Shown here in pieces: positions 2,026 to 53,485 of a stretch of 60,898 bases of DNA. The position numbers and the translations under genes were made by a program. Source of the DNA: a virus (taxonomy: Duplodnaviria > Caudoviricetes); IMG/VR virus record IMGVR_UViG_3300027821_000008, positions 1-60,898 of that record, one strand, 5' to 3'. How positions within the stretch are numbered: position 1 is the stretch's first letter; every line of letters starts with the position of its first letter. The notes beneath the pieces were generated by a model, which was not told the origin of the DNA, ran no database searches, and saw nothing but the letters and a program-made list of their open reading frames with translations.

Positions 2026-2219
2026 CGATAGTTTTATTTTCCAAAATATCTCTTGACCGGCCCATATTCTGTGCTATTATGAAGGTAAGAAGAGAACAAA
2101 AAGAAGAAACCGAAGAAAAAGAAGCCGCCCCACCGCACAGTAGCGACGGAGAGAGTCTCAGGAAGACCGGGCCAGCAACAAAGAGAGCAGCAGAGGATAA
2201 CCGGACAGGAGCAGAGATC

Positions 2220-2693
2220 ATGGCAAAGAGATTAACTACCACAGCAAAGGTTGGCAAGCTGATTAGCCTAGCCCCATGCCCCGTCTACTCCAATACCGAA
2301 GATCATGGCAACTGGTATGCAGTGGATATGGACTTTGTGGCAATCGACGAAAGAGCAAGCTTCAGGGCGCCAATGACATTTCGCAAAATAGCTCACGAGC
2401 TGGTTCACTCCACTGGAGCAGAAAGCAGATTGAATAGGAAAATGAGCGCAGAATTCGCAGATGCAGAATATAGCCTGGAAGAGTGTGTGGCTGAGGTAGG
2501 CGCGATGATTTTGATGAATCGATTCGGCGTCGACGCACCCAGCGTCATCAAAGAAAGCGAAAGATATCTGGCAGGCTGGATGGCGCACGCAGCAAAAATA
2601 AACAACATGAAAGATGAAGATGTGGTTAGATTTGCGATGGACAAAGCCAAAGAAGCAGTGGAATACCTGTTTGATAACGTTAAAGGTGAATGA
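2220..2693 (+). CDS. ArdC-like zincin metallopeptidase domain (stand-alone)
   Basis: HELVHSTG..SRLNR, YSLEECVAE and YLAGW match the ArdC C-terminal metallopeptidase pattern; GGAG RBS. Confidence 0.7.
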   Translation: MAKRLTTTAKVGKLISLAPCPVYSNTEDHGNWYAVDMDFVAIDERASFRAPMTFRKIAHELVHSTGAESRLNRKMSAEFADAEYSLEECVAEVGAMILMNRFGVDAPSVIKESERYLAGWMAHAAKINNMKDEDVVRFAMDKAKEAVEYLFDNVKGE

Positions 2694-5448: not shown

Positions 5449-5534
5449 TATAATTGAGAATTATTGTTAATTGGCGATGGGTTTGATGTTTTGGGTTGTG
5501 TTATTGACTGATGTTGTGAATATTCGATATAGTG

Positions 5535-5579
5535 AACCTCCGCCCACCACTACACCCAAAATTTTATGGGTTTGGGGGG
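5535..5579. repeat. 45 bp inverted repeat, copy 1
   Basis: Exact reverse complement of 60854..60898. Confidence 0.95.
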
Positions 5580-5581
5580 GG

Positions 5582-5611
5582 TTGACAGAAGACAAAATGG
5601 TAGTGTATAAT
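5582..5611 (+). promoter_or_regulatory. sigma70 promoter for the replication operon
   Basis: TTGACA-18 nt-TATAAT upstream of dnaB. Confidence 0.65.
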
Positions 5612-5643
5612 GCCATTACGCAAAATATTATGGAATTTTTAAT

Positions 5644-6984
5644 ATGACACAAGACCAATTTAATTCAGCTGGAACCGCCGAAAAAAGCGTGATTGCAGCA
5701 GTGCTTGCGGACAACGATAATATCGACAAGCTATCTCGCGTTCAACCCAAGCATTTTATCGACCCTATAAATCGCGCAGTGTACGCAGAAATTATTAGAC
5801 AGATAACGGTAAATGGTCAATGCGATCACGTATCCATAAAAGACCGCCTTGGCGCAACAATACCACCCGAATATTTGCCAGAAGTTCTTGCGCTATCGGA
5901 CAAGGCGCACGCAGTTAATCAATACGCTCGAATCGTGCTTGATCGATTTGTTAAATTCAACCTTGCAAATATATGCGACAAATCTCTCGATGTAATTAGG
6001 TCTGGTCGCGAAGATGGTCTTTCAATTGCTGACAGAATTGTAGGCGAGATAGAGTTCATTTCTGCCAATGACAATAATGCCGGGGCATCCAAGGTGTCGT
6101 CTGAGCTTGAGTCTCATATACACAATCTGAGAGAGGCTACGATAGACGACAAAGAGGCCGCGCAGACAACTGGCTTTTCTGAGCTTGATTCAAGATTGGC
6201 TGGTGGGTTTAGGCCGGGCCAGTTGATTATTCTTGCGGCAAGACCAAAGATGGGCAAATCTGCGCTTGCGTTGTCGCTTGCCCTGAATATAGCCAAAGAC
6301 AAGCCAGTAGCTATGTTTAGTCTAGAGATGACTAAACAAGAGATCATAAATAGGGCGCTATCATCTGTTGGCAGCGTAGAGCTAGCCAAAATTCTTCAGC
6401 CGAAGAAAATGAGCGAAACTGACTGGTCTGGACTAAGCGCTGCGCAGTCGTCGCTTTCTAAGTCCAATTTGTTTATTGATGATCACGCCGGCATCGGTAT
6501 TATGGATATCCGCGCAGAGGCAAGAAAGATCAAGCGAACGCAGGGCCTTGGCATGATTGTAATTGATTATTTGCAATTATGTAGGATGGGTGCAGGCGAT
6601 ACCGAGACAGAAAGAATTACTCAATTTACGATTGGGCTTAAGAACTTGGCAAAGGAGCTGCAAGTCCCGATTTTGTGTCTCAGCCAGTTGAATCGCGGAG
6701 TTGAGTCTCGTGCAGATAAGCGCCCAATGCCGTCAGACCTTCGCTCATCTGGATCAATTGAGCAGGATGCAGACATTGTTATGCTTATGTACAGGGATGT
6801 TGTGTATGACCAATACACCAATCACCCGGACCTTACAGAGCTTAACGTTGCCCTGAGCCGATCTGGCGAGCCTGGTGTTGTTGGGTTGAATTTCGTGTCA
6901 AAATATACAAGGTTTGAGGATTATATTGGTCTTATTCCAAAATCAACAAAGAAATCTGTTGACAATAATTCCAATTCATGGTAA
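5644..6984 (+). CDS. dnaB: replicative DNA helicase
   Basis: AARPKMGKS Walker A, IDYLQL, LSQLNR and DLRSSGSIEQDAD motifs. Confidence 0.95.
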   Translation: MTQDQFNSAGTAEKSVIAAVLADNDNIDKLSRVQPKHFIDPINRAVYAEIIRQITVNGQCDHVSIKDRLGATIPPEYLPEVLALSDKAHAVNQYARIVLDRFVKFNLANICDKSLDVIRSGREDGLSIADRIVGEIEFISANDNNAGASKVSSELESHIHNLREATIDDKEAAQTTGFSELDSRLAGGFRPGQLIILAARPKMGKSALALSLALNIAKDKPVAMFSLEMTKQEIINRALSSVGSVELAKILQPKKMSETDWSGLSAAQSSLSKSNLFIDDHAGIGIMDIRAEARKIKRTQGLGMIVIDYLQLCRMGAGDTETERITQFTIGLKNLAKELQVPILCLSQLNRGVESRADKRPMPSDLRSSGSIEQDADIVMLMYRDVVYDQYTNHPDLTELNVALSRSGEPGVVGLNFVSKYTRFEDYIGLIPKSTKKSVDNNSNSW

Positions 6985-9007: not shown

Positions 9008-9027
9008 AGCTAAAATAAATTGAATGG

Positions 9028-9058
9028 AGACCCATCGGACGCGGTGGGTTCTTTTTTT
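9028..9058 (+). terminator. Rho-independent terminator
   Basis: GACCCATC...GGTGGGTT stem followed by a T run. Confidence 0.6.
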
Positions 9059-9733
9059 ATGATAATTGTCCCCGGCAAATATTATGTTTATGCTCACTAT
9101 ACATTGGATGGCGAGCTATTTTACATTGGGAGTGGCAAGTCGCATCGGCCATCCACATCTGAGGGGCGCAATGATCTGTGGACCATTGTGGCAAAAAATG
9201 GCTTTATCGTTCGTGTGCTAAATGAATTTGATACCAAGGCGGAGGCTCTCTGGTGGGAAAACATTTTAATAAGAAAAAACCAAAAAGCGCTAGTAAATAA
9301 ACGAGAGGCAACAGGAGAAGATCACTTTAATTGGGCGACCAAGTGGTCAGAAGAGCATAAAGAAAAATTATCGAAAGCAAAGCTTGGAAAAAAACAATCC
9401 GAAGAACATAAAAGAGCGATAGCCAAGGCCTTAACCGGAAGAAAAAGGTCGGACGCAGAAAAGGCGGCGATATCTCGAGGGCACACCGGAAAAATTCTAA
9501 AAGAGGAAACAAAAAGATTGCTTAGCGAAATAAATTCTGGAGAGCGCAACCCAAGATATGGCGTTCCGATGTCTGATGACGCAAAAAGAAAATCGTCCGA
9601 ATCGCAGAGAGGCAAACCAAAATCAAAAGAAACCCGCCTCAAAATGTCCAATTCAGCCAAATTACGATGTGCCAAAAAGAAGTTGGAAATGGAACAAGCC
9701 CGCCCAAATATAGACGATCACAAGGATTCCTAA
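9059..9733 (+). CDS. GIY-YIG homing endonuclease with NUMOD3 repeats
   Basis: YVYAHY..GELFYIGSG; repeated SEEHK/SKETR-type motifs. Confidence 0.8.
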   Translation: MIIVPGKYYVYAHYTLDGELFYIGSGKSHRPSTSEGRNDLWTIVAKNGFIVRVLNEFDTKAEALWWENILIRKNQKALVNKREATGEDHFNWATKWSEEHKEKLSKAKLGKKQSEEHKRAIAKALTGRKRSDAEKAAISRGHTGKILKEETKRLLSEINSGERNPRYGVPMSDDAKRKSSESQRGKPKSKETRLKMSNSAKLRCAKKKLEMEQARPNIDDHKDS

Positions 9734-12666: not shown

Positions 12667-14964
12667 ATGACTCACGCTAAACTGACCAAAAACGCTAACG
12701 ACGCACTTGATCGTGCAGAGGTTCACGCTAAGCAACTTGGTCATTACTTTGTTGGGGCAGACGTTCTAGCCAGAACTCTGATAGATGACGAAGACGTTAA
12801 GGCCGCCATAGAGGGCGCCGGGGCGTCGTTTCAATTAATTGAAATTGGCCTGACAAAAATCGTTGACAGCATGCCAGAAAGCACAAACATCGTTGGGCGC
12901 CCTGCGCTGTCCGCGGTTGTAAAGAATATTGTAATGAATGCAACCATGCATTCCAGTCTTAATCCACGTCAGGCGCTTGCCACGTCCGTTGACATGCTGT
13001 ACCTCGTCATAAGGGCGTCCAATACGGCATCGTCCTCATTCCTTGTTCAAAACGGAGTTACTCTAGACTCACTGCGCCCAAAATGCAGCGTTATGGGCGA
13101 TATCGAGTCCATGCATTCCGAGCCAAAGTCTGGCCCAACTATGGTTAGTGGCGGATTTGACCCATTCTCCGGTCTCGGCAACTCGTCGCAAAGTGCAACA
13201 CGCAGAGCAATTGACGACCCTCTCGCAGGATGCCCGTCGCTCCGCAGGCACGGCATCAATTTGAATGCTCTTGCCCTGGACGGAAAGCTTGATGCATTGG
13301 TTGGCCGCGCAGACGAGATGGATGAGATTATCATGACATTGTCGCGCCGCCGCAAAAACAACCCAATCCTTGTTGGCGATGCAGGAACTGGTAAAACAGC
13401 GATTGTTGAGGGATTGGCGCAACTCCTGACAAGCGAAAATTGCCCGCCAAAGCTGGCCGGACATACCATTGTGAGTGTATCGATCAGCGGACTTGTCGCA
13501 GGAACAAGCACGGTTGGCGTGTTCGAGGACAAGGTAAAAGACATTGTTGAAGAGGCAAAAAGAAGCGGAAAGATTATCCTGTTTTTTGATGAGATTCATA
13601 CGATGAAGGGCGCCGGAACTCATAGTAAGTCGAGTACGGATATGGCTGATATGATCAAGCCAGCACTTGCACGCGGCGAGATCAAAGTCATCGGCGCAAC
13701 CACATACGCAGAATACAAGTCCACATTCGAAAAGGACAAGGCAATCGCTCGTCGATTCCAACTGATCACCATCAATCCTCCTGGAGAGTCCGACTCTGTC
13801 AAGATTCTGGCATCCAATGCACTTGACCTGGAAAAATTCCACGGAGTTTCGTTCGAGGATGGCGCAATTGAGGCAGCAGTATCGTTGGCAAAACGCTACA
13901 TCCTGTTCAAGAATCTGCCTGACAGTGCCCTGGACGCACTGGATGAAGCGGCAACCCGCGCTGCAACCAAGGATGGCATTGTAACAAAGAGTATCATTGA
14001 GGACGTAATCAGCAAGATGGGTAACGTTCCAGTGGATAGCGTTCGCTCGTCCGAGCTGGACAAGCTTGCGTCCCTCGAGGCGTCTATTAAGAAGCGCGTC
14101 TTTGAGCAAGATCATGCGGTTGAGACCGTCTCCAGGGCAATTATTGCCAACAGGGCAGGACTGACCAGAGATAACAAGCCAATTTTGTCGGCCCTCTTCG
14201 GCGGCCCGACTGGCGTTGGTAAGACTGAACTCGCCAAGCAAATCGCCGAACATATGGGCATCAAGTTGATTCGCTTCGACATGTCCGAATACAGCGGAGA
14301 GCATTCTGCCAGCAAATTGGTAGGCTCCCCGGCAGGATATGTGGGATATGAGGATGGCGGCCTGCTCACAAGCGCAGTCATCAAGAATCCGCACTCTGTG
14401 ATCCTGCTTGATGAAATTGAAAAGGCCAGCGACTCCGTATTCAACACATTGCTGCAAGTGCTTGATGATGGTACGCTAACCGACAACCAAGGCAACAAGG
14501 CTGACTTCAGAAGTGTAATTCTGATCATGACAACTAACGCCGGAGCCAAGCATGACGAGAAGGTTCGGTCCATTGGATTCGGATCGCAAAAAAGGGGAAC
14601 AGGCAAAGCAGAGGAGCGGGCGCACTTGGTGGACACGTTCAGCCCTGAATTCCTGAACCGCATTGACAGTATTGTAAAGTTCAACAAGCTTACGGACACT
14701 TCGATCCGCAAAGTGGCAGAGAAGATGTTGGGCGACCTGGTCAAGAAGGCGGCAGAGCGCGGATTCAAGGTAACGCACGGCGATGACGTAACAGACTTGA
14801 TCGCAAAGGATGGACATGATATTGAAATGGGGGCTCGTCCGATTGCACGATCGATCCAAACATTGATCCTCCCTGCCCTTAGCCAAGCGATGATCTTCAA
14901 CGCAGATGCGAAAGAGATCAATCTGGTTGTGGTGGATGGCAAGATTGTGGTTGAAGGGGTATAG
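12667..14964 (+). CDS. clpA: ATP-dependent Clp protease ATPase subunit, ClpA-like
   Basis: Clp N domain, two AAA+ modules (GDAGTGKT, GPTGVGKT), GYVG pore loop and SIGF ClpP-docking loop; no ClpB middle domain. Confidence 0.9.
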   Translation: MTHAKLTKNANDALDRAEVHAKQLGHYFVGADVLARTLIDDEDVKAAIEGAGASFQLIEIGLTKIVDSMPESTNIVGRPALSAVVKNIVMNATMHSSLNPRQALATSVDMLYLVIRASNTASSSFLVQNGVTLDSLRPKCSVMGDIESMHSEPKSGPTMVSGGFDPFSGLGNSSQSATRRAIDDPLAGCPSLRRHGINLNALALDGKLDALVGRADEMDEIIMTLSRRRKNNPILVGDAGTGKTAIVEGLAQLLTSENCPPKLAGHTIVSVSISGLVAGTSTVGVFEDKVKDIVEEAKRSGKIILFFDEIHTMKGAGTHSKSSTDMADMIKPALARGEIKVIGATTYAEYKSTFEKDKAIARRFQLITINPPGESDSVKILASNALDLEKFHGVSFEDGAIEAAVSLAKRYILFKNLPDSALDALDEAATRAATKDGIVTKSIIEDVISKMGNVPVDSVRSSELDKLASLEASIKKRVFEQDHAVETVSRAIIANRAGLTRDNKPILSALFGGPTGVGKTELAKQIAEHMGIKLIRFDMSEYSGEHSASKLVGSPAGYVGYEDGGLLTSAVIKNPHSVILLDEIEKASDSVFNTLLQVLDDGTLTDNQGNKADFRSVILIMTTNAGAKHDEKVRSIGFGSQKRGTGKAEERAHLVDTFSPEFLNRIDSIVKFNKLTDTSIRKVAEKMLGDLVKKAAERGFKVTHGDDVTDLIAKDGHDIEMGARPIARSIQTLILPALSQAMIFNADAKEINLVVVDGKIVVEGV

Positions 14965-14966
14965 TC

Positions 14967-15224
14967 ATGGAATTCTTGGCCTCAATGTATAGGCGGTGGA
15001 TTGTCTGGTTCAATTATGGTGGCAAGACAGTTAGCAAGTATCCGTATTACGAGGGGGCCAAGATGATCGTTGTGGTCAATGATGGAGTGTTCACGGCATA
15101 CCTGGACAAGTTTCCAGAGATAGTCGGGCATGGAGAGACAGAGTTTGATGCGAGCCTAGAGATGCAGTATGCATACAATGGCAAGCTGATGAGGGAGATT
15201 AGGCGTGGCAAAGAAAACTCTTGA
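14967..15224 (+). CDS. HicB-like fold protein
   Basis: DGVFTAYLDKFPEIVGHGETEFDA resembles the HicB N-terminal consensus. Confidence 0.5.
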   Translation: MEFLASMYRRWIVWFNYGGKTVSKYPYYEGAKMIVVVNDGVFTAYLDKFPEIVGHGETEFDASLEMQYAYNGKLMREIRRGKENS

Positions 15225-15690
15225 AGAGCGCTTCTGGGAGAAGGTGGATGTGCGTGGTCCGGGTGATTGCTGGGAGTGGCTTTGCTGTAAAAGTGAAAAT
15301 GGTTATGGGCAAATTGCGATTAATGGAAAAACTATTAGGGCGCACAGAGTGTCTTTTGAAATAAATTTTGAAAAAAAGATTGATGTCGGACTTTATATTT
15401 TGCATTCCTGCGATAACCGCTCTTGCGTGAACCCATACCATCTCAGACAGGGAACTCATAAAGAAAATATGGGGGACCGACTGATGGGCGGCCCGTGGGC
15501 GAACGGTAGCAAAAAAAAGGCCGTCACTTATGCTGGCGCAGAGAAAATATGGGTAGGCGCCGAAGATGCCCATAGAGAAACGGGCGTTGGGCCTGAAAGC
15601 ATTTCTCGGTGCTGCAACGGTAAGCGCAAGTCAGCAGGAGGATTCAAATGGTACTTTGTAGACGAACAGAAAAAGGACAAACCCACATGA
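15205..15690 (+). CDS. HNH homing endonuclease with NUMOD1
   Basis: RFWEKV, CWEW, AHRVS and HSCDNRSCVNPYHL. Confidence 0.9.
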   Translation: MAKKTLEERFWEKVDVRGPGDCWEWLCCKSENGYGQIAINGKTIRAHRVSFEINFEKKIDVGLYILHSCDNRSCVNPYHLRQGTHKENMGDRLMGGPWANGSKKKAVTYAGAEKIWVGAEDAHRETGVGPESISRCCNGKRKSAGGFKWYFVDEQKKDKPT

Positions 15691-16804: not shown

Positions 16805-16852
16805 AAAAAAATAGACCCGCCACCGAATGGTGAGCGGGTCTTTGTGCTTTTT
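16805..16852. terminator. bidirectional terminator between the convergent arms
   Basis: A run, AGACCCGC/GCGGGTCT stem, T-rich tail. Confidence 0.75.
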
Positions 16853-17225
16853 ACGGCTTGAAATGTGATGATCCAAATGCTCGGACCGCCAGGTACATCG
16901 CCTGAGCCTTCCACTCCTCAACGCCACAAGTAATCAGGGCTTCTTTGAGTATTGAGTCGCAATGCAGGCGATCAAACATTTGTCTTGAGTACAAAAAGTC
17001 ATGCACTGTGCCGGCCCTGTTTCCAAGATCGCCAACAGCATCAAACACTATAGGAATCCTTGGGACGGAGCAGAAATCAGTCTTAAATCCAGCAGGAACA
17101 CTAATTACCATATTTACAATGTCGCTTGAGTAAATCAGCGGAGATTGAAGTTCCCACACTTGAGGCCCTGACCAGCTGTCGTCTTTTACTTCTTTGACAA
17201 CTAGGTCGCTTAGAAATGCCGACAT
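16851..17225 (-). CDS. DUF1353-like protein
   Basis: VPAGFKTDFCSVPR, HDFLY and MYLAVRAFG. Confidence 0.75.
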   Translation of the reverse strand: MSAFLSDLVVKEVKDDSWSGPQVWELQSPLIYSSDIVNMVISVPAGFKTDFCSVPRIPIVFDAVGDLGNRAGTVHDFLYSRQMFDRLHCDSILKEALITCGVEEWKAQAMYLAVRAFGSSHFKP

Positions 17226-17244: not shown

Positions 17245-17694
17245 TTATTGTGCTACCGGGGCGACTGCGCCAGGTATGGTTGCAGGGGCGCCAGATTGGG
17301 CAGCTTGAACCGCGCCAAGCAATGCCATGCCCAAAGTGAACTGAGCCTTAACTTCCGGTGATATAACCGTGGTGGCTGCCAGGATATTCTTCACGAGCGG
17401 CAACAGGGCTGCTGCATCGGCCGGGGTTGCTGTACCGGCTTCGGCTGCCACTTTGGCATACAGGGCGTTTGCCTTGTCCAGATCAGCTTGTTGATCGTGG
17501 GTCAGAAGGTCGCGTTGTGCGGTCAATGCGGTCAGAACAGGGGCGATTGCTGCCAGACCCTTGTTAACCTGAGTCTTGATGTCGGAAGTTTGACCAAGAA
17601 CGGTGTTGGCTGCGGTGTTAAGTGGAGCTACAGCGGCGCATCCGCTAAGGCCAGCGATGGAGGCGATTAGAGCGATTATGAGCAGTTTTTTCAT
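17245..17694 (-). CDS. lipoprotein (possible spanin or lysis accessory)
   Basis: Signal peptide with LSGC lipobox; Ala-rich helical. Confidence 0.65.
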   Translation of the reverse strand: MKKLLIIALIASIAGLSGCAAVAPLNTAANTVLGQTSDIKTQVNKGLAAIAPVLTALTAQRDLLTHDQQADLDKANALYAKVAAEAGTATPADAAALLPLVKNILAATTVISPEVKAQFTLGMALLGAVQAAQSGAPATIPGAVAPVAQ

Positions 17695-17748: not shown

Positions 17749-17881
17749 AATGCGTTCAAATTGATTTAGAAGCGGGACCGAGCATCCCATCCAATATGGG
17801 GATCAGGATCATTGACTTCCGGGGTGACATCCGGGGCACTTCCCGGGTCTACTTCCGGGGTAGCCACGACATCACCCTCAA

Positions 17882-18097
17882 TTACTGGGGGAGTGTATCA
17901 TCCTTTTGTGTGGTGGTGTCGGTGGGGGCCGATGGTGCATTGACGTGTGATATTACGCCAACTGCACCCAAACAAACTAAAATTTCTTTCAGTACGTCAA
18001 CAAATGCAGCCACGGGAGTTAGATTAGCCAGGGCCAATCCAAGCCAGATCAGAACAACAAGTCCTGCCGCCCACATCTTGATGGGTATCGATTTCAT
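17882..18097 (-). CDS. holin-like membrane protein (possible frameshift extension to 17766)
   Basis: Two hydrophobic segments, AGGAG RBS, lysis-region context. Confidence 0.55.
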   Translation of the reverse strand: MKSIPIKMWAAGLVVLIWLGLALANLTPVAAFVDVLKEILVCLGAVGVISHVNAPSAPTDTTTQKDDTLPQ

Positions 18098-18615
18098 TCA
18101 ATTTCTCCTGATGAGTTAGGTTGGGTTTGTGTATCTACGAAATACCATTTAAATCCGCCTGCTGATTTGCGTTTACCGTTGCAGCACATGTGTATGCCGT
18201 TACGATTAACCCCGGTGTCTTGGGACGCCTGGTAAATTGAGTTAAAAATAATCTCTGAGCCAACATATGTAACTCTAATTGCCCTGGTTCCGCACGGGTG
18301 CGTCCTGTGCGACCCAATTCCGCTAAAAAAGCCTTTGTAGTTGCTTGGGTTTTTTGAAATATTAACTAACTGAGATTGATTTTCAACAATAACCCTTCTT
18401 TCTAGATCAAGTGCGTGTGATTTTTTATCAAATGAATCAAGCATTCTAACCGTATAGCCATGCGATGCCATCTGCCACCACTCATTGCTGCGCTCTTTTT
18501 CTGAGCAAATGCGAGATGAATTGCCCATGCCCACATAGAACAATACGCCATCTAACGTGTAATGCCCATACACGTAGTATTTGCCTGGAATGATCAGAAT
18601 GCCGTCACTCACCAT
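18094..18615 (-). CDS. GIY-YIG homing endonuclease with NUMOD1
   Basis: YVYGHY..GVLFYVGMG; C-terminal CCNGKRKSAGGFKW. Confidence 0.8.
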   Translation of the reverse strand: MVSDGILIIPGKYYVYGHYTLDGVLFYVGMGNSSRICSEKERSNEWWQMASHGYTVRMLDSFDKKSHALDLERRVIVENQSQLVNISKNPSNYKGFFSGIGSHRTHPCGTRAIRVTYVGSEIIFNSIYQASQDTGVNRNGIHMCCNGKRKSAGGFKWYFVDTQTQPNSSGEIE

Positions 18616-18775
18616 ATATCCTTTTGCGGGCCTTCTCGGCTACAGCCAATGCTTTCTTCCATGCGGCGGCGTCGTTAAGCTCCCACGCTGCATCAAGATA
18701 CATCTCAATGTCACGCTCGGTAACGAGGTACTTCCAGCCCTCAAATAATGTCTGATCAGTCGCCGCATTCATCAT
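18605..18775 (-). CDS. 56 aa protein resembling the N-terminal domain of HI1420-family addiction-module antitoxins
   Basis: Read directly: MMNAATDQTLFEGWKYLVTERDIEMYLDAAWELNDAAAWKKALAVAEKARKRIYGE; F..xxYL..E.DI..YL.AA.E..D......AL....AR pattern; no HTH. Confidence 0.55.
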   Translation of the reverse strand: MMNAATDQTLFEGWKYLVTERDIEMYLDAAWELNDAAAWKKALAVAEKARKRIYGE

Positions 18776-18932
18776 CGAATATATCCCTCACCCTTCCACG
18801 TATCCCATGCATTGCCATTTCCATAGCAACGGATCGGTAATACAGCATTGGGAATTCTTTGCACATCCCAATATAATGCCCGTGCTCGTCATCCCTTACT
18901 ACGGAAAAAGTATATAGGCTCAAATCAATCAT
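18756..18932 (-). CDS. 58 aa HicB-like N-terminal domain protein
   Basis: AGGAGG RBS; MIDLSLYTFSVVRDDEHGHYIGMCKEFPMLYYRSVAMEMAMHGIRGRVRDIFDDECGD. Confidence 0.6.
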   Translation of the reverse strand: MIDLSLYTFSVVRDDEHGHYIGMCKEFPMLYYRSVAMEMAMHGIRGRVRDIFDDECGD

Positions 18933-18947
18933 ACTTCCTCCTAAAAT

Positions 18948-19021
18948 TGGTGTCAGTTTTTTGGTTGTGCGGAAACTAACTAAAACCGCACCGGCTCATG
19001 TTGTTGAGGCCAAGGAGCCGG
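18948..19021 (-). ncRNA. hairpin plus H-type pseudoknot (candidate)
   Basis: CCGGCUC/GAGCCGG; S1 UGCGG/CCGCA; S2 GUUAGUUU/AAACUGAC. Confidence 0.4.
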
Positions 19022-19041
19022 AAGAACTCAGCCGTGATTCA

Positions 19042-19266
19042 TTATGAGTCAGGATTCTTTTTCCACTTTGATTGTGGCGTCCCTGCATTCTTATGGTCAG
19101 TCACATACCAGCCATTGCCTTTTAGCGCAAACCCACTGGATGTTAATTGTTTCTGAAGCTCTGGCTTGGCGCATGTGGGGCAGATTACCAGCGCATCTTC
19201 TGACATTTTCTGCAACTTTTCAATCACATCACCGCAAGCTGCGCACTTGTAGACATAGATGGGCAT
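19042..19266 (-). CDS. FmdB-family zinc-ribbon protein
   Basis: MPIYVYKCAACG...CPTC...FALKGNGWYVTD. Confidence 0.9.
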   Translation of the reverse strand: MPIYVYKCAACGDVIEKLQKMSEDALVICPTCAKPELQKQLTSSGFALKGNGWYVTDHKNAGTPQSKWKKNPDS

Positions 19267-19285
19267 AATTGCATCCTAAAAGTAT

Positions 19286-19362
19286 TGGCGGTCACCTACG
19301 GCATCGAACCGCAATCCTGACAGCTTTGGAGGCTGGCGCTTTTCCGATTAAGCTAAATGACC
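19286..19362 (-). tRNA. tRNA-Trp (CCA)
   Basis: GGTCATT/GGTGACC acceptor stem, CTCCAAA anticodon loop, GTTCGAT T loop, G discriminator and encoded CCA end. Confidence 0.85.
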
Positions 19363-19371
19363 TATGAGGCG

Positions 19372-19400
19372 ATTATGCCATAACAAAATGCTCGTGTCAA
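19372..19400 (-). promoter_or_regulatory. sigma70 promoter for the tRNA cassette
   Basis: TTGACA-17 nt-CATAAT. Confidence 0.7.
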
Positions 19401-19413
19401 GCGATTTGTTGCA

Positions 19414-19890
19414 TTATAGTGAGTCGAATTGCTGGAAGTTGTTACTGCGAATGATTGCCATTAGGAGATCGGCGTAGCCAGGATTCGTGCTATAACCTGC
19501 CGCTTGGATGGCTGCCGCGAATTGGGCCGCATCGCCCTTGACTGCAAGAGCCTTGGCGTAGCGCGGATTGACGACGAAGAAATTGGCGTGATCAGCAAGC
19601 GAGGCAGCATACGAATCATAGCATCTCCAGTTGGCGTCCACCGTAACAATGTGACCATTCACGTACTCTTTGGTTGGCATTGCAAGAATCTTGCCGGTCC
19701 ATGACGACGTAGCCTTGATTCCGAACACGTTCTTAGCCTGTATTGCCAATTGACTTGTGAGCCATGAGCTTTCAACGGCTGCCTGGGCCAGGGTAATTGA
19801 TGCCTTGATTCCGCTGTCATGCATTGACTGGATTGCACCATCCTTCAGCGCATTCATGAAATTAAGTTTCTTTGTGTCGACGATTGACAT
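19414..19890 (-). CDS. endolysin, GH73 glucosaminidase (FlgJ-like)
   Basis: AQAAVESSW, NVFGIKA and GYSTNPGYA. Confidence 0.88.
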   Translation of the reverse strand: MSIVDTKKLNFMNALKDGAIQSMHDSGIKASITLAQAAVESSWLTSQLAIQAKNVFGIKATSSWTGKILAMPTKEYVNGHIVTVDANWRCYDSYAASLADHANFFVVNPRYAKALAVKGDAAQFAAAIQAAGYSTNPGYADLLMAIIRSNNFQQFDSL

Positions 19891-19941
19891 ATATTCCCCA
19901 GATATGATACGATTGACAGATGACTAAACAAGGAGCCACAA

Positions 19942-20154
19942 ATGAGCACAGTAATTGCAGTTAATGTTGCAGGCGAGCCACAAAAGCGCACAAAAATTAG
20001 CTTCGAGCACCCGCTATCCAAATCGGAAGTTGCGGAGATTCTTGGCGTTCTTGCTAAAAACTATGGATCGGATCAGGCAATTGCAACAGTATCAATTGAT
20101 GACGGCACGAGCCACTCAACAAAATACTATGGGCTAAATGGAGCTTCCAGGTAA
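19942..20154 (+). CDS. hypothetical protein (isolated opposite-strand gene)
   Basis: AAGGAG RBS. Confidence 0.55.
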   Translation: MSTVIAVNVAGEPQKRTKISFEHPLSKSEVAEILGVLAKNYGSDQAIATVSIDDGTSHSTKYYGLNGASR

Positions 20155-20439
20155 TTATTTGTGCGAGAAGTAGCCGATTACGAAGTGATTGATTGCTATG
20201 GCAACACCAACCACTGGGGCTATGTATTTTACGATGACGTTGATTGTCTTCGCCATTACGTGCAATGTCTGTACCCCAACCTTATACTGATCAACAATTA
20301 ACTCGATCTCGGTAAAGTTTTTCTCGATTTTCTCAAGCACAATCATCTGATGAGCAGCCCTGTCCTCAAGCGACTTGATTCGCTCATCTCTTTCTTGCGA
20401 CCGCGTTGTGCGGCGTTGCTTATTTTCTTGGGTTGACAT
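20155..20439 (-). CDS. coiled-coil protein with C-terminal TM (holin/antiholin-like)
   Basis: Upstream of the endolysin; C-terminal hydrophobic helix. Confidence 0.5.
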   Translation of the reverse strand: MSTQENKQRRTTRSQERDERIKSLEDRAAHQMIVLEKIEKNFTEIELIVDQYKVGVQTLHVMAKTINVIVKYIAPVVGVAIAINHFVIGYFSHK

Positions 20440-31769: not shown

Positions 31770-32315
31770 TTAAGTGGTCGGCGTCTCGGAAGAACTCTCG
31801 TCTGTGGTCGATGTCGGCAAGGAATTCTTGTAATCCGTAATGCTCAAGTAGGTTCCCGCAAATGCCCACATTGTACCCATTTGTGACAGAACTATCTCCC
31901 TGTCCACTTTGCGGTTGAGCAAGGCTAAGGTAAAAAAAGCAAGGACGTTTTCCACCTCCTCCGCCTCGTCCTCCGATAGGAGTCCTTTTTGAACACAATC
32001 AAAGAATGGGCGGGTTTGCCATCCAGCATCAGTCAGTGTCATGACATTTGCTGAGCGCTTGATTTCATTCAAGAGTCCCTGCTCCACGTCATCGATAGTT
32101 CCAAGCTCTGTTGCCAGGCTGCGAATCAACTTTGCCGCGATGCGCGGACCGACGATGACTTGACCGTTTGTGTAGATGTCAGAGAATACACGCGACAATA
32201 CGATGATGTAACGATCAAATACTGTCTTGTGGATTGGTGTGGCGTGGATGTGAATCTCAGACCCATCATCAGCCGTGACCTTCATGACCAAATTCAGCTT
32301 CTTGTCAATCTTCAT
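31770..32315 (-). CDS. tail assembly chaperone
   Basis: Between tube and tape measure; overlapping -1 frame ORF runs to 31639. Confidence 0.65.
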   Translation of the reverse strand: MKIDKKLNLVMKVTADDGSEIHIHATPIHKTVFDRYIIVLSRVFSDIYTNGQVIVGPRIAAKLIRSLATELGTIDDVEQGLLNEIKRSANVMTLTDAGWQTRPFFDCVQKGLLSEDEAEEVENVLAFFTLALLNRKVDREIVLSQMGTMWAFAGTYLSITDYKNSLPTSTTDESSSETPTT

Positions 32316-32794
32316 TGGATGGCTCCGTGGGAGTGGGTTTGGATTGTTCTAGTTTGCGTCGGGCGTGGAGGGCCTTTCCAGCATCAGACATTTTTTTTCT
32401 TGTTTCTTCTGAGGCTCTTTTTCCTATTTTTGCGTCAGACAGTTTCTTTCTATGCTCTGTCGATAGCGCCCTGCCGACCTTAATGGATCGCATTTTTTTC
32501 TTTATGCTCTTCTGTGTGAAAAGCCCTTCCGGTTCCAGTAACATTACATGTCGGGCGATAAAGACGAAGAAGCTCAAGCTCCGCGTCCCGAGCCTGTCTG
32601 TCTTGCGCTTCTGTGAAAAATCCCAAAATCTCAATGGAATACCCGCGAACTGCCTCAAGCTTCCAGTCATCTGTCCTTGCCCTTTGGTCGAACGCACGCT
32701 CGAACCACCCATATCCAATATAGAATATCTCGCCAGTATCTTTCCGGCGATGGGCATACACGACAATTTTGTTGTATGGCACTTCAATTAACAT
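32305..32794 (-). pseudogene. GIY-YIG/NUMOD3 homing endonuclease split by a frameshift
   Basis: VVYAHRRKDTGEIFYIG in one frame and NUMOD3 repeats in the +1 frame, joined at an A7 run near 32493-32499. Confidence 0.7.
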
Positions 32795-41727: not shown

Positions 41728-42258
41728 TCAATTAATCAATAGCTTTATTATTTCTTCAGTTATGCCATAATCCTCAGCCAATTCTTTAATTGTTGACTTT
41801 TTGGAATAATATCTTGCGTAGATTTCGCAAATCTGAGCCTGCTTTAGATTGCCTAATTTTTGTGCAGATAAGAGCCTCTTTGTCTCTGTTGTGTCACAGC
41901 TTGCCGAAGTTCTTTTTTTTGCTAATTTTCTATCGGCATAGCTTTTGCTGCGACCAACATTGGCATTAACCAGGTGCTGCCAGTGCGTTGCGATCAAAGA
42001 TGCCTCAAGCTCAAATGCCTCTTTTTCTTGTGAATCCGAGAAAACCGCAATAATTGACACCATGTATCCATCAGCAGCCGCGGCCTTCCATGAGTTTAGG
42101 CGACCTATGTTGGAATATGCCCTAGATAGCCTCCCTTTACCAATATAGAATGGCACGTCTTCGTTGTGTTTAAAATGAGCGTAAACACAAAAAGAATCGC
42201 TATCAGCCGTAAAGCAAAAATCATTAATTTTATTTTCCATGATTTCAACTATTTGCAA
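41728..42258 (-). CDS. GIY-YIG homing endonuclease with C-terminal HTH
   Basis: CVYAHF...PFYIGKG; IKELAEDYGIT. Confidence 0.75.
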   Translation of the reverse strand: MQIVEIMENKINDFCFTADSDSFCVYAHFKHNEDVPFYIGKGRLSRAYSNIGRLNSWKAAAADGYMVSIIAVFSDSQEKEAFELEASLIATHWQHLVNANVGRSKSYADRKLAKKRTSASCDTTETKRLLSAQKLGNLKQAQICEIYARYYSKKSTIKELAEDYGITEEIIKLLIN

Positions 42259-45893: not shown

Positions 45894-46394
45894 TTATTGG
45901 TCTGCTTCAGAAAATTCTCTGTCAATAAACAAAGAGGCCAGCCCGCTAAGTTGCTTTAATCGCAATAACTCATCCTTATCCATACCAATATTCTTGCGAA
46001 TCCATCCGTCTGACGCCCCGGACGCAACAAGCTCAGCAACGATATTGGTCATAAGGTCGATCGAGTGACTTCCGCGTGCGCGATTGTGGCGAATCGTAGA
46101 TGCCATGCGACCCTCAATCGGCTTATCAATAACAACCACCGGCAATAGACCACCTTCTCGCTCAAATATACGCTTGCTGGTCTTCAGCGTTGTGTACCTG
46201 TGAAATCCGTCAACAATTTCGTACATATCCTCGTCAGGATAGTAATAGCACACAACTGGCATCGTATAGCCGTCTTCCCATATGCTGGTTTCCAGAAGTT
46301 TCATTTCTGGCGCAGCAACCGAGTTTGGGTTATACGCGTTTGCCCTAATTTTTGCCAGGGGGACTGCGCGAACATTATAAACTGGAGACGTCAT
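45894..46394 (-). CDS. ibrB: ParB/Srx-fold protein, IbrB/YbdM-like
   Basis: NAYNPNSVAAPEMKLL, IVDGFHR and STIRHNRARGSH. Confidence 0.85.
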   Translation of the reverse strand: MTSPVYNVRAVPLAKIRANAYNPNSVAAPEMKLLETSIWEDGYTMPVVCYYYPDEDMYEIVDGFHRYTTLKTSKRIFEREGGLLPVVVIDKPIEGRMASTIRHNRARGSHSIDLMTNIVAELVASGASDGWIRKNIGMDKDELLRLKQLSGLASLFIDREFSEADQ

Positions 46395-47695
46395 TTCGAT
46401 ATTTCCTTTTTGCGAGCGTATTTCTTTAGGGCCTCTTTGCGAAGATCGCGTTGATGCTTGGTAATTGCGAATCCCAATCTCTTACAGGTGATGTCGTTTG
46501 CAAGAATCACGGAGCAGAATTTCTTCCACGTAGGAACATCGCACTTTGTGTAAATTGCAGGAAGGTCGTCAAGAATCTTGTTGAACTTCACTACGTGCTT
46601 TTCTCCGCGACCTCTCTTGCTAAACTTCTCTGTATTTACAGCGGCTCCAGCAGGTATTTCTTTGATGTGCTGCGGCAGCATTGGAGAGCCGGTGTAATGC
46701 CAATACTTAATGTACTTTACGAACCGAGACATATAATTGTCTCTTGTGGCGGTCGGAAGCGTCTTCATCAAGAACTTGCAGTACGACTTCCACGTGTGTC
46801 CAGCAGGTAGCGTCATGTCGGCCGAACCAATTGCCTTGGTTCCACAGTAGATATTGCCGAAATTAACGCCACTAACCCTGTCAAGAAGCCTGCCCCAAGT
46901 CTCTGGTTCAATGATTCTGAACATATTCAGGCCGGCTTTTTGTTCATCTCCGAACGGCTCGCAGATGCGCATCTTTCCAAGCGCAACGCCAGCCTTGTAA
47001 AACTGATCGTATGTCTCGTTGTATGGCGCCGCAGTTTTTGCGTGATATGTCCAAATATCCTCTACAGTCCAATCGTAAATTGGGTAGAAGTTGACAGTCA
47101 GATCGGTTTTTACTACCGAATACTTTACATTCTCGAAGCGAGAAACGTCATCCCTATTCAGGGCGCGCCAACGATTCAAGCTCTCCTGCGTTCTGATGCC
47201 AACCAGTCCGGCGCACTTGCCGCCATTTTCTTTTGCGAACCAGTCGCCGAATTCAGTAATGAAGTCCTCGAATGTGATTCCTTCGTGCCAGAATCTGCCG
47301 AATGGGTTGTTATCGCTGTTGATAACATATTCAGACTCAGGCATTGGGCGAACCCATTTATCCTTCTTTTCTGGGTCCCAGAACTTCCACCAGGTTTCAT
47401 GCATGCTAACCGTATTCCAGGAGCGCATAGGAAGGCATATCCACATCGGCGTCGCAAGATGTGCATTATCCATCATAAGCTTCCAGGAGAAGTCATGAGT
47501 GCGCTTGTAGTGACCCTCAAGATCAATGAACAACGTTGTGCATTTTTTGCCAGCGCCGGCCGGGCTGCGTAGAAAGTCGTACACCAGATTAACAAGTGTT
47601 CCGCTATCCTTGCCGCCACTAAATGCAATATAGACATTGTCAAATTTAGAGAATATATACTCTATTCTCTGTTTGGCCGCGTCATAAACATTCAT
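46391..47695 (-). CDS. ibrA: PAPS-reductase-like PP-loop protein with DUF3440, IbrA/YbdN-like
   Basis: FSGGKDS, GIRTQESLNR, YPIYDW and MRICEPFG. Confidence 0.85.
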   Translation of the reverse strand: MNVYDAAKQRIEYIFSKFDNVYIAFSGGKDSGTLVNLVYDFLRSPAGAGKKCTTLFIDLEGHYKRTHDFSWKLMMDNAHLATPMWICLPMRSWNTVSMHETWWKFWDPEKKDKWVRPMPESEYVINSDNNPFGRFWHEGITFEDFITEFGDWFAKENGGKCAGLVGIRTQESLNRWRALNRDDVSRFENVKYSVVKTDLTVNFYPIYDWTVEDIWTYHAKTAAPYNETYDQFYKAGVALGKMRICEPFGDEQKAGLNMFRIIEPETWGRLLDRVSGVNFGNIYCGTKAIGSADMTLPAGHTWKSYCKFLMKTLPTATRDNYMSRFVKYIKYWHYTGSPMLPQHIKEIPAGAAVNTEKFSKRGRGEKHVVKFNKILDDLPAIYTKCDVPTWKKFCSVILANDITCKRLGFAITKHQRDLRKEALKKYARKKEISK

Positions 47696-49206
47696 TACAT
47701 GCCCTCCATATTTCCGAGTCCAATTGACACTCCATATGCAAATGCATCCACAAGATCATCAACTTGATTGTTTCTGCCAAGCTGATATTGAAATACCTGA
47801 GACATGAAATGATTTCTTGTTGAGTTCTTGAATTTCACTTGCTTGTTGTATGCGTGATCTGACAGCATTACATTTCGCAGACCCATATATCCTGTGATGG
47901 ATATTGCCCTGGTGTCCTTGCCAAGCGATGTGAACTTGGAAGAGATTGCGTTTAGCTGCCAGCCCTTCTTGGCGGCAAAAGACAGCATGGCGGTGCCAGC
48001 GGCCTTATCCTCAACCCAAATCCCAGCGCTCCCATATCTCGCCCTGCACGCAACGCTTAACTCCTCTAGGCGTGTAAGCTGCTGCGGAATCCAGTCCGTC
48101 ATCATCTCAGAGTCAAGCTGAACAACATCCCAGTCTAGAACGATCAGCGGTGTGCCGAAGTGCATTGATCTGGCAAAGAACACGATTGCGGTTCCGTCAT
48201 TCTTGTCTCCGGCCTTAAATGCTGTATCAAGGCATGCATAAACCGTATCACATGTAACTGGATATTGGCACGGAAGACCCTCGTAGCTAAGAACATCTGC
48301 TGAATTAAATAGAACGCCACCCTCTATCTCTGGTCTCTGCTGATACAGCGATGCCCATGTCCGTTTGTCGCCAAGTCTATATTGATCCCAGTGCTGAGAG
48401 TCGAACCACTCAGGCCAAAGAGATTCGCCAATCTCGCGACCCATTGGATCATTTGGCTTTTCGCAGATAGCAGGAACGCACAAAACGTCCCACATTGTGC
48501 CATCTCGACACAAAATCTCTCCAGACTCGCCCTTCCAGTCTTCTGGAAGCAGTCTGCCGGCGATATCATTTATCGACCATCTCGTCATAATCAGAACCTG
48601 AGACCCGCCAGGAATCAGACGAGACTTAATGGAGTCTGAATATTCTGCCCAAACAGAATCTTGTACAGACATAGAGTCTGCCTCTTCGCGATTCTTGACC
48701 GGGTCATCAATTATAACCATATCGGCGCGCTTACCGGTAATGCCGGTCTTGATACCTGCCGGTGTAAAGCTGCTTCCATTTTCAAGCTCAAGTCCGAGAT
48801 CAGACGAGAATGAACCCATCTGCGGCTTTGTCCCGGTCAATGTCTGATATCTCGGCGATTCAAAGATTTTCATCAGCTTCTTGGCATTATAGTCCGCATG
48901 ATCCTTGTTATAGGTTGCGAAGATAACGCGATAGCCAGGATTCATCCCCATAAAGTATGCCGGGGCAACCCATGACGCATAAGTTGATTTGGCAGAACCT
49001 GGGGGGAAGAAGATCATCAAGCGCCCGTACGGCTTTTCCATCGCATCTTTAAGCTTGTTCAGTATAAGCTCGTGGTGCGTGGCAACGCCTGCGCCATCCG
49101 GCCTGCCTGGCACGTATATCTGTCTTGCGAACTCGCAGATATCCTGTCTCGCCTTGCGACGAGAAAGAACCTCTTGAGCTGCCTTTTGTTTTGCGCTTAA
49201 AGTCAT
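47695..49206 (-). CDS. terL: terminase large subunit
   Basis: PPGSAKS, ITGKRAD..IIDDP, MTRW, DTAFK and DDLVDAF. Confidence 0.92.
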   Translation of the reverse strand: MTLSAKQKAAQEVLSRRKARQDICEFARQIYVPGRPDGAGVATHHELILNKLKDAMEKPYGRLMIFFPPGSAKSTYASWVAPAYFMGMNPGYRVIFATYNKDHADYNAKKLMKIFESPRYQTLTGTKPQMGSFSSDLGLELENGSSFTPAGIKTGITGKRADMVIIDDPVKNREEADSMSVQDSVWAEYSDSIKSRLIPGGSQVLIMTRWSINDIAGRLLPEDWKGESGEILCRDGTMWDVLCVPAICEKPNDPMGREIGESLWPEWFDSQHWDQYRLGDKRTWASLYQQRPEIEGGVLFNSADVLSYEGLPCQYPVTCDTVYACLDTAFKAGDKNDGTAIVFFARSMHFGTPLIVLDWDVVQLDSEMMTDWIPQQLTRLEELSVACRARYGSAGIWVEDKAAGTAMLSFAAKKGWQLNAISSKFTSLGKDTRAISITGYMGLRNVMLSDHAYNKQVKFKNSTRNHFMSQVFQYQLGRNNQVDDLVDAFAYGVSIGLGNMEGM

Positions 49207-50801: not shown

Positions 50802-51358
50802 TAGATTGCTCCGGTGATTTCCTGAAACCTTTTCATGAACATGTATGCTGCCTCTCTTCTAGAAATAGGTTCTATCGTATCACGGAATGGCTCAAAATTA
50901 CCATACTTGTCAAAATATTTTTTCTGGCCCTCAGAGAGAACGTCTCGCACTTCCGTAACAAGCGCACGCATATCCGAAGTCACTATTTCGCTATGGTTTG
51001 CGGCAATGCCTATTCCATATTTTGCGAATATTGCATCAGTTACACTGCCCTCAATATCAGAATACTGAGAAAGGCGTCTTTTTAGCGGAGATGGCACATC
51101 GCAAATAAAGGCTTCTGAGGAATCATGCATTAATGCGGCAAGAGCAAATTCGCGTGGCACGTTCTGCGAAACAATAACAGAGTGCTGGGCCACGGAATAA
51201 TGCATGTAGTTTTTAACGTGACCATTAAATCTACATACGCCAGACAATCCATAGGCAATATCCTCTATTGAGAAATTGTTTGCCGATATATCGGATAGAC
51301 TAAAAAAGTCACCTGAGTGTAGACTCATTCCGTCATATGTAAGCGTTTTGTCGGTCAT
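50801..51358 (-). CDS. HD-domain deoxynucleotide phosphohydrolase (YfdR-like)
   Basis: IEDIA..LS..CRFNGH, YSVAQHS and LMHDSSEA. Confidence 0.85.
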   Translation of the reverse strand: MTDKTLTYDGMSLHSGDFFSLSDISANNFSIEDIAYGLSGVCRFNGHVKNYMHYSVAQHSVIVSQNVPREFALAALMHDSSEAFICDVPSPLKRRLSQYSDIEGSVTDAIFAKYGIGIAANHSEIVTSDMRALVTEVRDVLSEGQKKYFDKYGNFEPFRDTIEPISRREAAYMFMKRFQEITGAI

Positions 51359-51359
51359 T

Positions 51360-52223: not shown

Positions 52224-52449
52224 TTATCTCACCATGAAACAGGATTTTTCCAGACTTCTCAACAAGGATTGTGCGCGGCAAATAGTCTGCGAAATAATAC
52301 GCACCGAAATCAATAATGTCGTCTAAATTAGAAAACATATGATCCTCTCTCTCGACAATGCCAATTGTATCGCCGTTGCGATCAAATGTGGTTATTGTAA
52401 CTTCCACCTCTTTGTGGCGTTGTTTAAAAAACGGGTCGAGAAATTTCAT
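52207..52449 (-). CDS. hypothetical protein
   Basis: GAGG RBS; packed in the operon. Confidence 0.55.
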   Translation of the reverse strand: MKFLDPFFKQRHKEVEVTITTFDRNGDTIGIVEREDHMFSNLDDIIDFGAYYFADYLPRTILVEKSGKILFHGEINAKQK

Positions 52450-52467
52450 ATTGTCCTCTGGATAGAT

Positions 52468-53429: not shown

Positions 53430-53485
53430 GCTTATTTCCTTTTTGGTGGGCTTGTTCATTTCAAATATGCCTAGAACGCATCAGA

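Follow-up and report, generated by a model that had tools for sequence, protein, structure and literature searches.

A virulent-looking soil myovirus carries in its lysis region an accessory island, encoded on the minus strand and bordered by the endolysin gene and a holin-like gene, with two small overlapping open reading frames (ORFs) whose products resemble the N-terminal parts of antitoxins of two different families. The virus is IMG/VR record IMGVR_UViG_3300027821_000008 (Duplodnaviria; Caudoviricetes), and the window analyzed here is the whole of that record, 60,898 bp at 47% G+C. The first ORF encodes a protein of 58 amino acids (aa) that is very likely a homologue of the HicB N-terminal domain without a DNA-binding domain. 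The second encodes a 56-aa protein that is probably the part of an HI1420-type antitoxin that precedes its helix-turn-helix (HTH). The reading that we favor, at a probability of roughly 0.45, is that the two proteins are toxin decoys. The two ORFs are placed as follows:

18756-18932, minus strand: 58-aa ORF, very likely HicB N-terminal-domain homologue; AGGAGG 5 nucleotides (nt) ahead of the ATG
18605-18775, minus strand: 56-aa ORF, probable HI1420-type N-terminal part; shares 20 nt with the 58-aa ORF and 11 nt with a homing-endonuclease-like gene

An earlier note, made from the letters of this DNA alone, had described both ORFs, with the AGGAGG ribosome-binding site and the overlap, and had assigned them by eye to these same two families. 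The ORFs are present as described, and both assignments were borne out by the searches reported below. The note had also called them absent from the ORF track, which is true of that track; both proteins are nevertheless called genes in a public protein collection, on two contigs, and are therefore not overlooked genes. Word-index protein searches with the 58-aa and 56-aa proteins returned only the proteins themselves.

An exhaustive phmmer search with the 58-aa protein over 1.84 billion representatives retrieved 11 proteins at E <= 0.001, namely the query itself, two long repetitive proteins and eight short relatives of 55-118 aa with 33-47% identity (E = 1.9e-7 to 9.1e-4). The alignment used in what follows (A1) omits the two long proteins, P0003 (1611 aa) and P0005 (646 aa), which are multi-domain or repetitive and were matched over 27-32 residues only. 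With A1 as the query against viral contigs, 59 of 94 pattern hits were found to encode relatives of the 58-aa protein. Most of these relatives are 104-109 aa long and combine the same N-terminus with a C-terminal domain, and PF05534 HicB was recognized in five of the six full-length relatives tested. The sixth, in a provirus (L036, 2992-3570), carries a HicB-type N-terminal domain joined to an Aca2/YdiL-like domain (PF08965, E = 9e-22) and not to a ribbon-helix-helix (RHH). In the language-model-based Atlas, the clusters nearest to the 58-aa protein are HicB-named (top score 0.91). A sequence search of the Protein Data Bank (PDB) gave nothing for the protein itself, and only chance haemagglutinin helices for the family profile.

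The AlphaFold2 (AF2) model of the 58-aa protein, built from A1, has a predicted local distance difference test score (pLDDT) of 88.7 and consists of three strands and a helix (residues 9-14, 19-24, 27-34 and 37-56, respectively). When this model was compared with the PDB by Foldseek, HicB/UPF0150 structures occupied ranks 1-5 and 7. The best match was the N-terminal domain of Burkholderia pseudomallei HicB (6g1c; probability 0.98, E = 0.096), and further matches included 2yzt, 6g1n, 2dsy, Escherichia coli HicB3 (6u0i) and E. coli HicAB (6hpb). VIA, an independent aligner, gave Z = 6.6 for 2dsy and Z = 6.3 for 6g1c, the latter with a root-mean-square deviation of 1.5 over 53 residues. Modest E-values and Z-scores are expected for a chain of only 58 residues, and because the fold scores are modest, the fold alone is insufficient and it is the sequence relatives that decide the HicB identity. 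The N-terminal domain is the HicA-binding part of HicB in solved HicAB complexes. The 58-aa protein stops cleanly at the border of this domain and has no DNA-binding domain.

For the 56-aa protein, residues 11-50 match positions 5-44 of the 89-position model TIGR02684 (dnstrm_HI1420) with E = 1.6e-4, and a six-frame search of the genome with this family gave a sole match, at 18626-18745 (E = 6e-5). There is a weak match to phrog_4268 as well (E = 0.0064). In BLASTP comparisons with two full-length members, identity was 33% and 38% over 45 aa (E = 1e-4 and 5e-6), residues 9-50 aligning with the N-terminal 45 residues of full-length HI1420-type members; in the alignment the ORF stops where the HTH begins. 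A profile of the N-terminal region recovered 57 proteins among 65 candidates, mostly 'addiction module antidote' proteins of 90-98 aa, and PF21716 is present in 25 of the 30 Atlas clusters nearest to the 56-aa protein. The AF2 model is a helical hairpin (pLDDT 83.4). The Foldseek check that the earlier note had proposed for both peptides thus pointed to HicB for the first and gave no meaningful PDB match for the second (best E = 5.3). A PDB sequence search returned only chance MerR matches for the 56-aa protein and nothing for the HI1420 profile. As that note had stated, both peptides lack a DNA-binding domain, and a six-frame search for the HTH half or an RHH remnant elsewhere in the genome found none.

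We also looked for partner toxins. Profiles for HicA (PF07927), Gp49 (PF05973), HI1419 (TIGR02683) and a HicA-like family (A2) had no six-frame match in the genome at E <= 10, and a scan of 52 further ORFs revealed no toxin family at E <= 0.001. For the families tested, the 60.9-kb genome therefore holds no recognizable partner toxin, in line with what had been concluded by eye. A conserved, HicA-like family of 77-92-aa ORFs is found in 39 of the 59 viral loci, usually directly upstream of the HicB relative. The relatives in 48 of the 59 loci carry an RHH-like motif, as defined by us, and those in the other 11 do not; a HicA-like ORF was nearby in 39 of the 48 RHH-bearing loci versus none of the 11 RHH-less loci, and it was present anywhere in the record in none of six RHH-less records versus all three controls. 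Some of the 11 RHH-less cases are not clean: the locus ends within L054, three others (L034, L059 and L060) appear to be broken, and in L036 the other C-terminal domain mentioned above takes the place of the RHH.

Proviruses also contain the second family. Among 30 viral records with a HicB-family member, which are strongly redundant, nine also had a full-length HI1420-type member, in seven cases above the cut-off, and there it directly follows a gene for a PF05973 Gp49-family toxin. Since these nine records hold modules of both families, both toxin types can face a phage in one lysogen. In one viral contig (L012, 2418-3321) the genes ahead of the HicB-family gene encode not a HicA-like protein but a toxin resembling HigB (PF05015, E = 6.9e-18) together with an HTH antitoxin, so that HicB-type and HigB-type modules are adjacent.

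The earlier note had proposed that the cassette neutralizes host HicA and RelE/HigB-type toxins, and the decoy reading takes this up as a hypothesis. According to it, both small proteins would be made early in infection from a promoter of the island itself, the 56-aa protein through translational coupling to the 58-aa ORF, and both would act as toxin-binding decoys without binding DNA. The HicB-like domain would inhibit an RNase of the HicA type by binding it, and the helical HI1420-like N-terminus would bind an RNase of the Gp49/HigB type (RelE superfamily). The target toxins would belong to toxin-antitoxin modules that the host or one of its prophages encodes, and would be freed when infection stops host gene expression and labile antitoxins decay. 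The recurrence in viral contigs of HicB-family forms with neither RHH nor HicA-like neighbor, and the co-occurrence of both module types in proviruses, fit this reading. Signs of expression are a strong ribosome-binding site, the overlap of the ORFs and a phage-like codon score that, for both, is higher in the named frame than in any of the other five. The score is 0.012 for the 58-aa ORF and 0.316 for the 56-aa ORF, compared with a range of -0.05 to 0.44 and a mean of 0.266 for 29 long genes of the window.

A complex-fold check of the kind proposed earlier was run with the 56-aa protein and, as a stand-in, a Gp49-family toxin of another provirus. It gave 0.36 in all three runs, which agreed in at least 89% of contacts with a partner pLDDT of at least 76, versus 0.03 for the best of three controls; the verdict is weak support. 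Of 157 solved complexes, 116 reach the mark used for such folds, as do 2 of 215 mismatches; at 0.60 or under, only 18 of the 157 solved complexes do so, and both mismatches. This model may thus shift the odds of binding by the 56-aa protein slightly, and it settles nothing. We regard as doubtful the further-reaching idea that a virulent phage has assembled an anti-toxin operon of bare toxin-binding modules from two unrelated type II antitoxin families, HicB plus HI1420/HigA-like, stripped of their DNA-binding domains, translationally coupled, and expressed with a tRNA from their own promoter. If it were true, minimal antitoxin domains would be portable counter-defense parts. Co-occurring HicA-type and Gp49/HigB-type modules would then be active anti-phage barriers that have to be beaten together.

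The island reads, in order, promoter-like site, tRNA-Trp(CCA), FmdB gene, 109-nt spacer, 58-aa ORF, 56-aa ORF and homing endonuclease. Together with its flanks, and leaving aside the two ORFs already given, it comprises:

19414-19890, minus strand: endolysin (glucosaminidase), upstream flank; PF01832 E = 5.7e-34, phrog_3513 E = 2.1e-51
19400..19372, minus strand: predicted sigma-70-type promoter-like site, TTGACA-17 nt-CATAAT with an upstream TG (extended -10); 11/12 consensus matches
19286-19362, minus strand: tRNA-Trp, anticodon CCA, 3' CCA encoded; ARAGORN, and Rfam RF00005 at 44.9 bits, E = 4.6e-8
19042-19266, minus strand: FmdB-family CxxC...CxxC zinc ribbon, 74 aa; PF09723 E = 8.7e-16, TIGR02605 E = 6.2e-20, phrog_1076 E = 3.4e-6
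18933-19041, minus strand: spacer, 109 nt, with two hairpins
18094-18615, minus strand: homing-endonuclease-like gene, 173 aa; PF22083 (I-HmuI NUMOD-like) E = 3.5e-7, endonuclease families phrog_20162, phrog_314 and phrog_16880; GIY-YIG-like N-terminal motif read by eye only
17882-18097, minus strand: hydrophobic membrane protein, 71 aa, weakly holin-like, downstream flank; phrog_13404 holin E = 0.0013
17245-17694, minus strand: lipoprotein-like ORF
16851-17225, minus strand: DUF1353

The promoter, tRNA and zinc ribbon that the earlier note had placed here were all recovered. The promoter is a pattern match. Between 17800 and 20200 there are seven such promoter-like sites versus 4.4 +/- 1.9 in shuffled sequences, which makes their number unremarkable by itself; the one at 19400..19372 is the best of them. 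Another pattern of this kind, TTGACA-18-TACGAT with a TG (19884-19913), precedes an ORF of 70 aa that diverges from the endolysin (19942-20154, plus strand), matches no family and has a good codon score (0.361). The FmdB scores exceed the family cut-offs (71 bits versus 31.3 for TIGR02605 and 58.1 versus 34.4 for PF09723); to our knowledge, the function of FmdB-family proteins is not established. ARAGORN found no tRNA in the genome other than tRNA-Trp. The anticodon loop of this tRNA looks ordinary, and tryptophan accounts for 1.07% of 16,782 residues in 64 ORFs, which gives no hint of an unusual need for it, so that the idea of a replacement tRNA found no support. HicA and RelE-type toxins cleave mRNA and are not known to cleave tRNA-Trp. 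Given these targets and the ordinary anticodon loop, a link between the tRNA and the toxins was dropped. The tRNA and the FmdB gene share a predicted transcript with both peptides, and no link of either to toxins was found beyond this, so their place in an anti-toxin cassette, as once supposed, is not supported.

The spacer had been thought to contain a pseudoknot, and this too is not supported. Its two hairpins have stems of 7 bp (CCGGCUC/GAGCCGG) and 6 bp (GUGCGG/CCGCAC), and in folding energy it does not stand out from shuffled sequence (z = -1.52; 13 of 200 shuffles as stable), with z = -1.95 and 4 of 200 shuffles as stable when the flanks are included. Crossing stems can be drawn, for example between the loop of the second hairpin and an 8-nt stretch downstream, and 25 of 300 dinucleotide shuffles equal the crossing-stem score, a measure of our own. 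Rfam detected nothing besides the tRNA between 18400 and 19600 at E <= 1. A UUCUUCC in the spacer could possibly base-pair with the AGGAGG region ahead of the 58-aa ORF, its ribosome-binding site.

With the endolysin as query, four distant loci were retrieved, the nearest of which (L061) is 50% identical. There (5462-6157), the endolysin is followed by a Cys-rich ORF of 73 aa and an HNH endonuclease, which echoes the zinc ribbon and endonuclease of the window. No homology was detected between its neighbors and those in the window, and L061 therefore gives no real synteny.

A PHROGs scan of the large ORFs identified structural and packaging genes (tail sheath, baseplate hub, portal and large terminase) and replication genes (DnaB-like helicase, family-A-type DNA polymerase and RecJ-like exonuclease). 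No integrase or repressor family was matched in 40 large ORFs (PHROGs) or 52 further ORFs (Pfam), and the phage is therefore called virulent-looking here, although a missing match is no proof. Among public sequencing runs, the stretch occurs in one DNA run, a soil metagenome that is probably its source, and in no RNA run. No compositional break was seen around the island, where the G+C fraction is 0.42-0.48 versus 0.47 genome-wide. No match to GenBank phage records was found by megablast of 17800-20200 or by tblastn of the 58-aa and 56-aa proteins at E <= 1, and single-protein scans of viral contigs revealed no relatives of the 58-aa protein, the 56-aa protein or the large terminase. At least seven homing-endonuclease-like genes (HNH, NUMOD3 or GIY-YIG-like) are present:

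1366-2025
9020-9733
15205-15690
18094-18615 (minus strand, in the island)
32305-32787
41728-42258
59059-59571

This is a high load for 61 kb, and it makes truncation of genes by insertion plausible.

Elsewhere in the genome, a zincin-like metallopeptidase of the MPTase-PolyVal type (2079-2693, plus strand; E = 4.7e-19), which PHROGs names an anti-restriction protein (E = 8.9e-24), is another candidate counter-defense gene. A 765-aa double-AAA+ protein of the ClpA/ClpB type (12667-14964, plus strand; AAA_2 E = 4.4e-55, ClpB_D2-small, AAA_lid_9) also matches phrog_4871 'ATP-dependent protease' (E = 6.7e-218), and such a putative phage unfoldase could have a bearing on antitoxin turnover. Among the packaging genes, a run of genes resembling those for nucleotide or DNA modification (45894-53459, minus strand) suggests a modified-base or nucleotide-pool pathway:

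45894-46394, minus strand: ParB_N-like
46391-47695, minus strand: PAPS reductase and DUF3440
49203-50801, minus strand: Orn/Lys/Arg decarboxylase, E = 6.5e-93
50801-51358, minus strand: YfbR-like HD phosphohydrolase
52468-52818, minus strand: dATP/dGTP diphosphohydrolase N-domain

Several results weigh against the decoy reading or against the assignments on which it builds. The 58-aa protein matches no family in the curated libraries (Pfam and NCBIfam, at E <= 1 and <= 10; PHROGs). Six-frame searches with PF15919 and PF21748 gave no match at E <= 10, and the cut-offs of the curated HicB N-domain models (PF15919, PF21748, PF15970) are not reached. None of the fold E-values of its model is <= 0.001, and double-stranded RNA-binding domain (dsRBD) folds come close behind in VIA (Z = 5-5.8). 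The 56-aa protein scores 21.8 bits with TIGR02684 where the cut-off is 53.7, does not match PF21716, and is aligned weakly by hhalign with a five-sequence profile (E = 0.015, probability 2.9). In the viral loci, the HicA identity of the 77-92-aa ORF family hangs on one weak match, that of a single ORF among the eight tested to PF07927 (E = 3.5e-4, below cut-off), and the profile of this family matched no solved structure at E <= 1. Because type II antitoxins are described as highly specific to their own toxin (PMC11257639), a decoy would require a matching host toxin. A prophage HicAB pair tested in another study conferred no phage resistance (PMC12894663). The searches given above found no close relatives of the phage in which the island might be conserved.

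The homology of the 56-aa protein also ends at 18626, 11 nt ahead of the endonuclease ATG at 18615. The earlier note had missed this point, from which truncation by insertion gains weight as a serious rival. In a sister subfamily, about 12 short database proteins (P0040-P0045, P0048, P0050, P0051, P0055, P0058 and P0060) have the first ~45 residues of the HI1420 type followed by unrelated tails. Since they are broken at the equivalent position, the pre-HTH breakpoint recurs as damage or junction; it may mark a site of repeated recombination or insertion, or else a domain border under selection. On this basis the island could be toxin-antitoxin DNA of bacterial or prophage origin that was moved or kept with the homing endonuclease, neither peptide serving the phage; the 56-aa protein would be an HI1420-type stump in which the endonuclease gene took the place of the HTH half, and the 58-aa protein a solitary leftover. 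The missing HTH half and RHH remnant, the many endonuclease-like genes, the HNH endonuclease after the endolysin of L061 and the broken HicB-family copies in proviruses L034, L059 and L060 all fit such a history. Against it, both ORFs are intact despite only 30-47% identity to their nearest relatives and have ribosome-binding sites and coupled overlaps, the codon score of the 56-aa ORF exceeds the long-gene mean, and the 58-aa protein ends at a domain border and folds confidently. Moreover, the remnant of a toxin-first operon should retain a piece of toxin, and what stands there instead is a second antitoxin domain. We consider this history somewhat improbable, although it is the main rival and a strong one, and the decoy reading remains the one that we prefer.

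The partner could also be sought within the phage, with the peptides neutralizing or regulating an unrecognized phage protein, be it a toxic small protein, the endonuclease or the lysis proteins, as an atypical internal toxin-antitoxin pair or a timing device. There is room for one, as 41 of 52 scanned ORFs have no Pfam match at E <= 0.001 and the island sits inside the lysis region. HicB proteins that lack a DNA-binding domain are, moreover, normally true toxin partners, given that the commonest hicBA operons encode this form (10.1101/2023.12.08.570793). Yet the four toxin profiles remained unmatched in all six frames, and the FmdB zinc ribbon and the endonuclease that flank the peptides are neither of them known toxin partners of these families, so that an internal partner appears improbable. 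It is distinctly improbable that the 58-aa protein is a small RNA-binding, dsRBD-like or UPF0150-fold protein with no relation to toxins and that the 56-aa hairpin is likewise unrelated. The closeness of the dsRBD scores, the predicted co-transcription with a tRNA and the abundance of the same fold among small uncharacterized phage proteins in BFVD (probability up to 1.0, E = 0.02 or weaker) would fit it, whereas the homology of the 58-aa protein is specifically to PF05534-bearing HicB and not merely one of fold, and the 56-aa ORF matches an antitoxin family independently by sequence. That one or both ORFs are chance open frames and not genes is suggested by their shortness and by the absence of the stretch from public RNA runs. 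This is extremely improbable, being largely refuted by homology: the 58-aa protein has significant homologues library-wide and the 56-aa protein has family and pairwise matches, besides which both have the best codon score of six frames and confident models.

If the decoy reading is true, bare binding modules of type II antitoxins would be usable by phages and stackable against several toxin families, and small unannotated ORFs beside lysis genes or homing endonucleases would be a place to look for such modules. If the 56-aa protein is instead an insertion stump, it would exemplify how homing endonucleases remodel the accessory regions of phages and would caution against inferring function from antitoxin-like fragments.

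Among known systems, the closest to the 58-aa protein is HicB of the hicAB/hicBA type II modules, which has the same strand-strand-strand-helix N-terminal fold in the solved comparators (B. pseudomallei 6g1c/6g1n, E. coli HicAB 6hpb, Streptococcus pneumoniae HicBA 5yrz and the short UPF0150 proteins 2dsy and 2yzt) and to which, in the form with a PF05534 C-terminus, it is related by sequence. Unlike these modules, it has no hicA in the genome, lies below every curated HicB model and is only 58 aa long, and it stands in the lysis region of a lytic-looking phage, where the next ORF encodes part of an antitoxin from another family. Most often, hicBA operons encode a HicB that lacks a DNA-binding domain, and solitary hicB genes are also known (10.1101/2023.12.08.570793); the earlier note had not taken into account that lacking this domain is therefore nothing unusual.

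The HI1420-type antidotes (TIGR02684/PF21716), with which the 56-aa protein shares the N-terminal region, are paired with toxins of the Gp49/HI1419 type. Gp49-domain toxins belong to the RelE superfamily and are encoded in toxin-first operons (PMC5906591). In contrast to these antidotes, the 56-aa protein has neither the HTH half nor an upstream toxin gene, and it falls short of the TIGR02684 cut-off by the margin given above. A sequence search gave no solved structure of an HI1420-type protein, and the N-terminal region is thus a candidate for the toxin-binding part of this family. As a working model we take HigA2 of Vibrio cholerae, from the toxin-first higBA2 module, whose N-terminal segment, ahead of a C-terminal HTH, neutralizes a RelE-type toxin, a 20-residue peptide being sufficient (PMC5416850). 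The two differ in that no sequence relation is detectable (the HI1420 profile misses HigA2) and in that the unbound HigA2 segment is disordered, in contrast to the helical hairpin predicted for the 56-aa protein.

Toxin-antitoxin modules are widely proposed as anti-phage defenses, and we know of few proven 'stolen antitoxin' countermeasures of phages. The toxin-binding parts of type II antitoxins are short and diverge fast, which makes them hard to spot as orphans. An example with experimental proof is enzymatic, namely AdfN, a DarG1-like enzyme of T4-like phages that acts as an orphan antitoxin in counter-defense and is, as far as its authors know, the first of its kind from a lytic phage (PMC11257639); a DarG2-like case is reported from chimalliviruses (PMC13309987). 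Like AdfN, which is used against toxin-antitoxin defense, the peptides described here are phage antitoxin homologues without a toxin; unlike AdfN, which reverses the product of the toxin with type IV logic, they would be type II binding domains, known so far from their sequences and models. The literature that we searched on HI1420, HicB orphans and HicB counter-defense contained neither a tested phage-borne decoy made of a type II binding domain nor a pair of antitoxin families in tandem. An orphan HicB gene without hicA is present in the lytic Vibrio phage vB_VpaM_R16F, where it was left unexplained (PMC10152775), and in this that phage resembles the lytic-looking phage studied here. That case is a single gene at the level of annotation, and the available text describes no second antitoxin fragment, tRNA or promoter context around it; the two HicB-family proteins are not close relatives, since no phage record in GenBank was matched by tblastn with the 58-aa protein at E <= 1. 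A lytic phage with an orphan HicB has therefore already been published, and it is the tandem of two antitoxin families that would be new, if it is functional.

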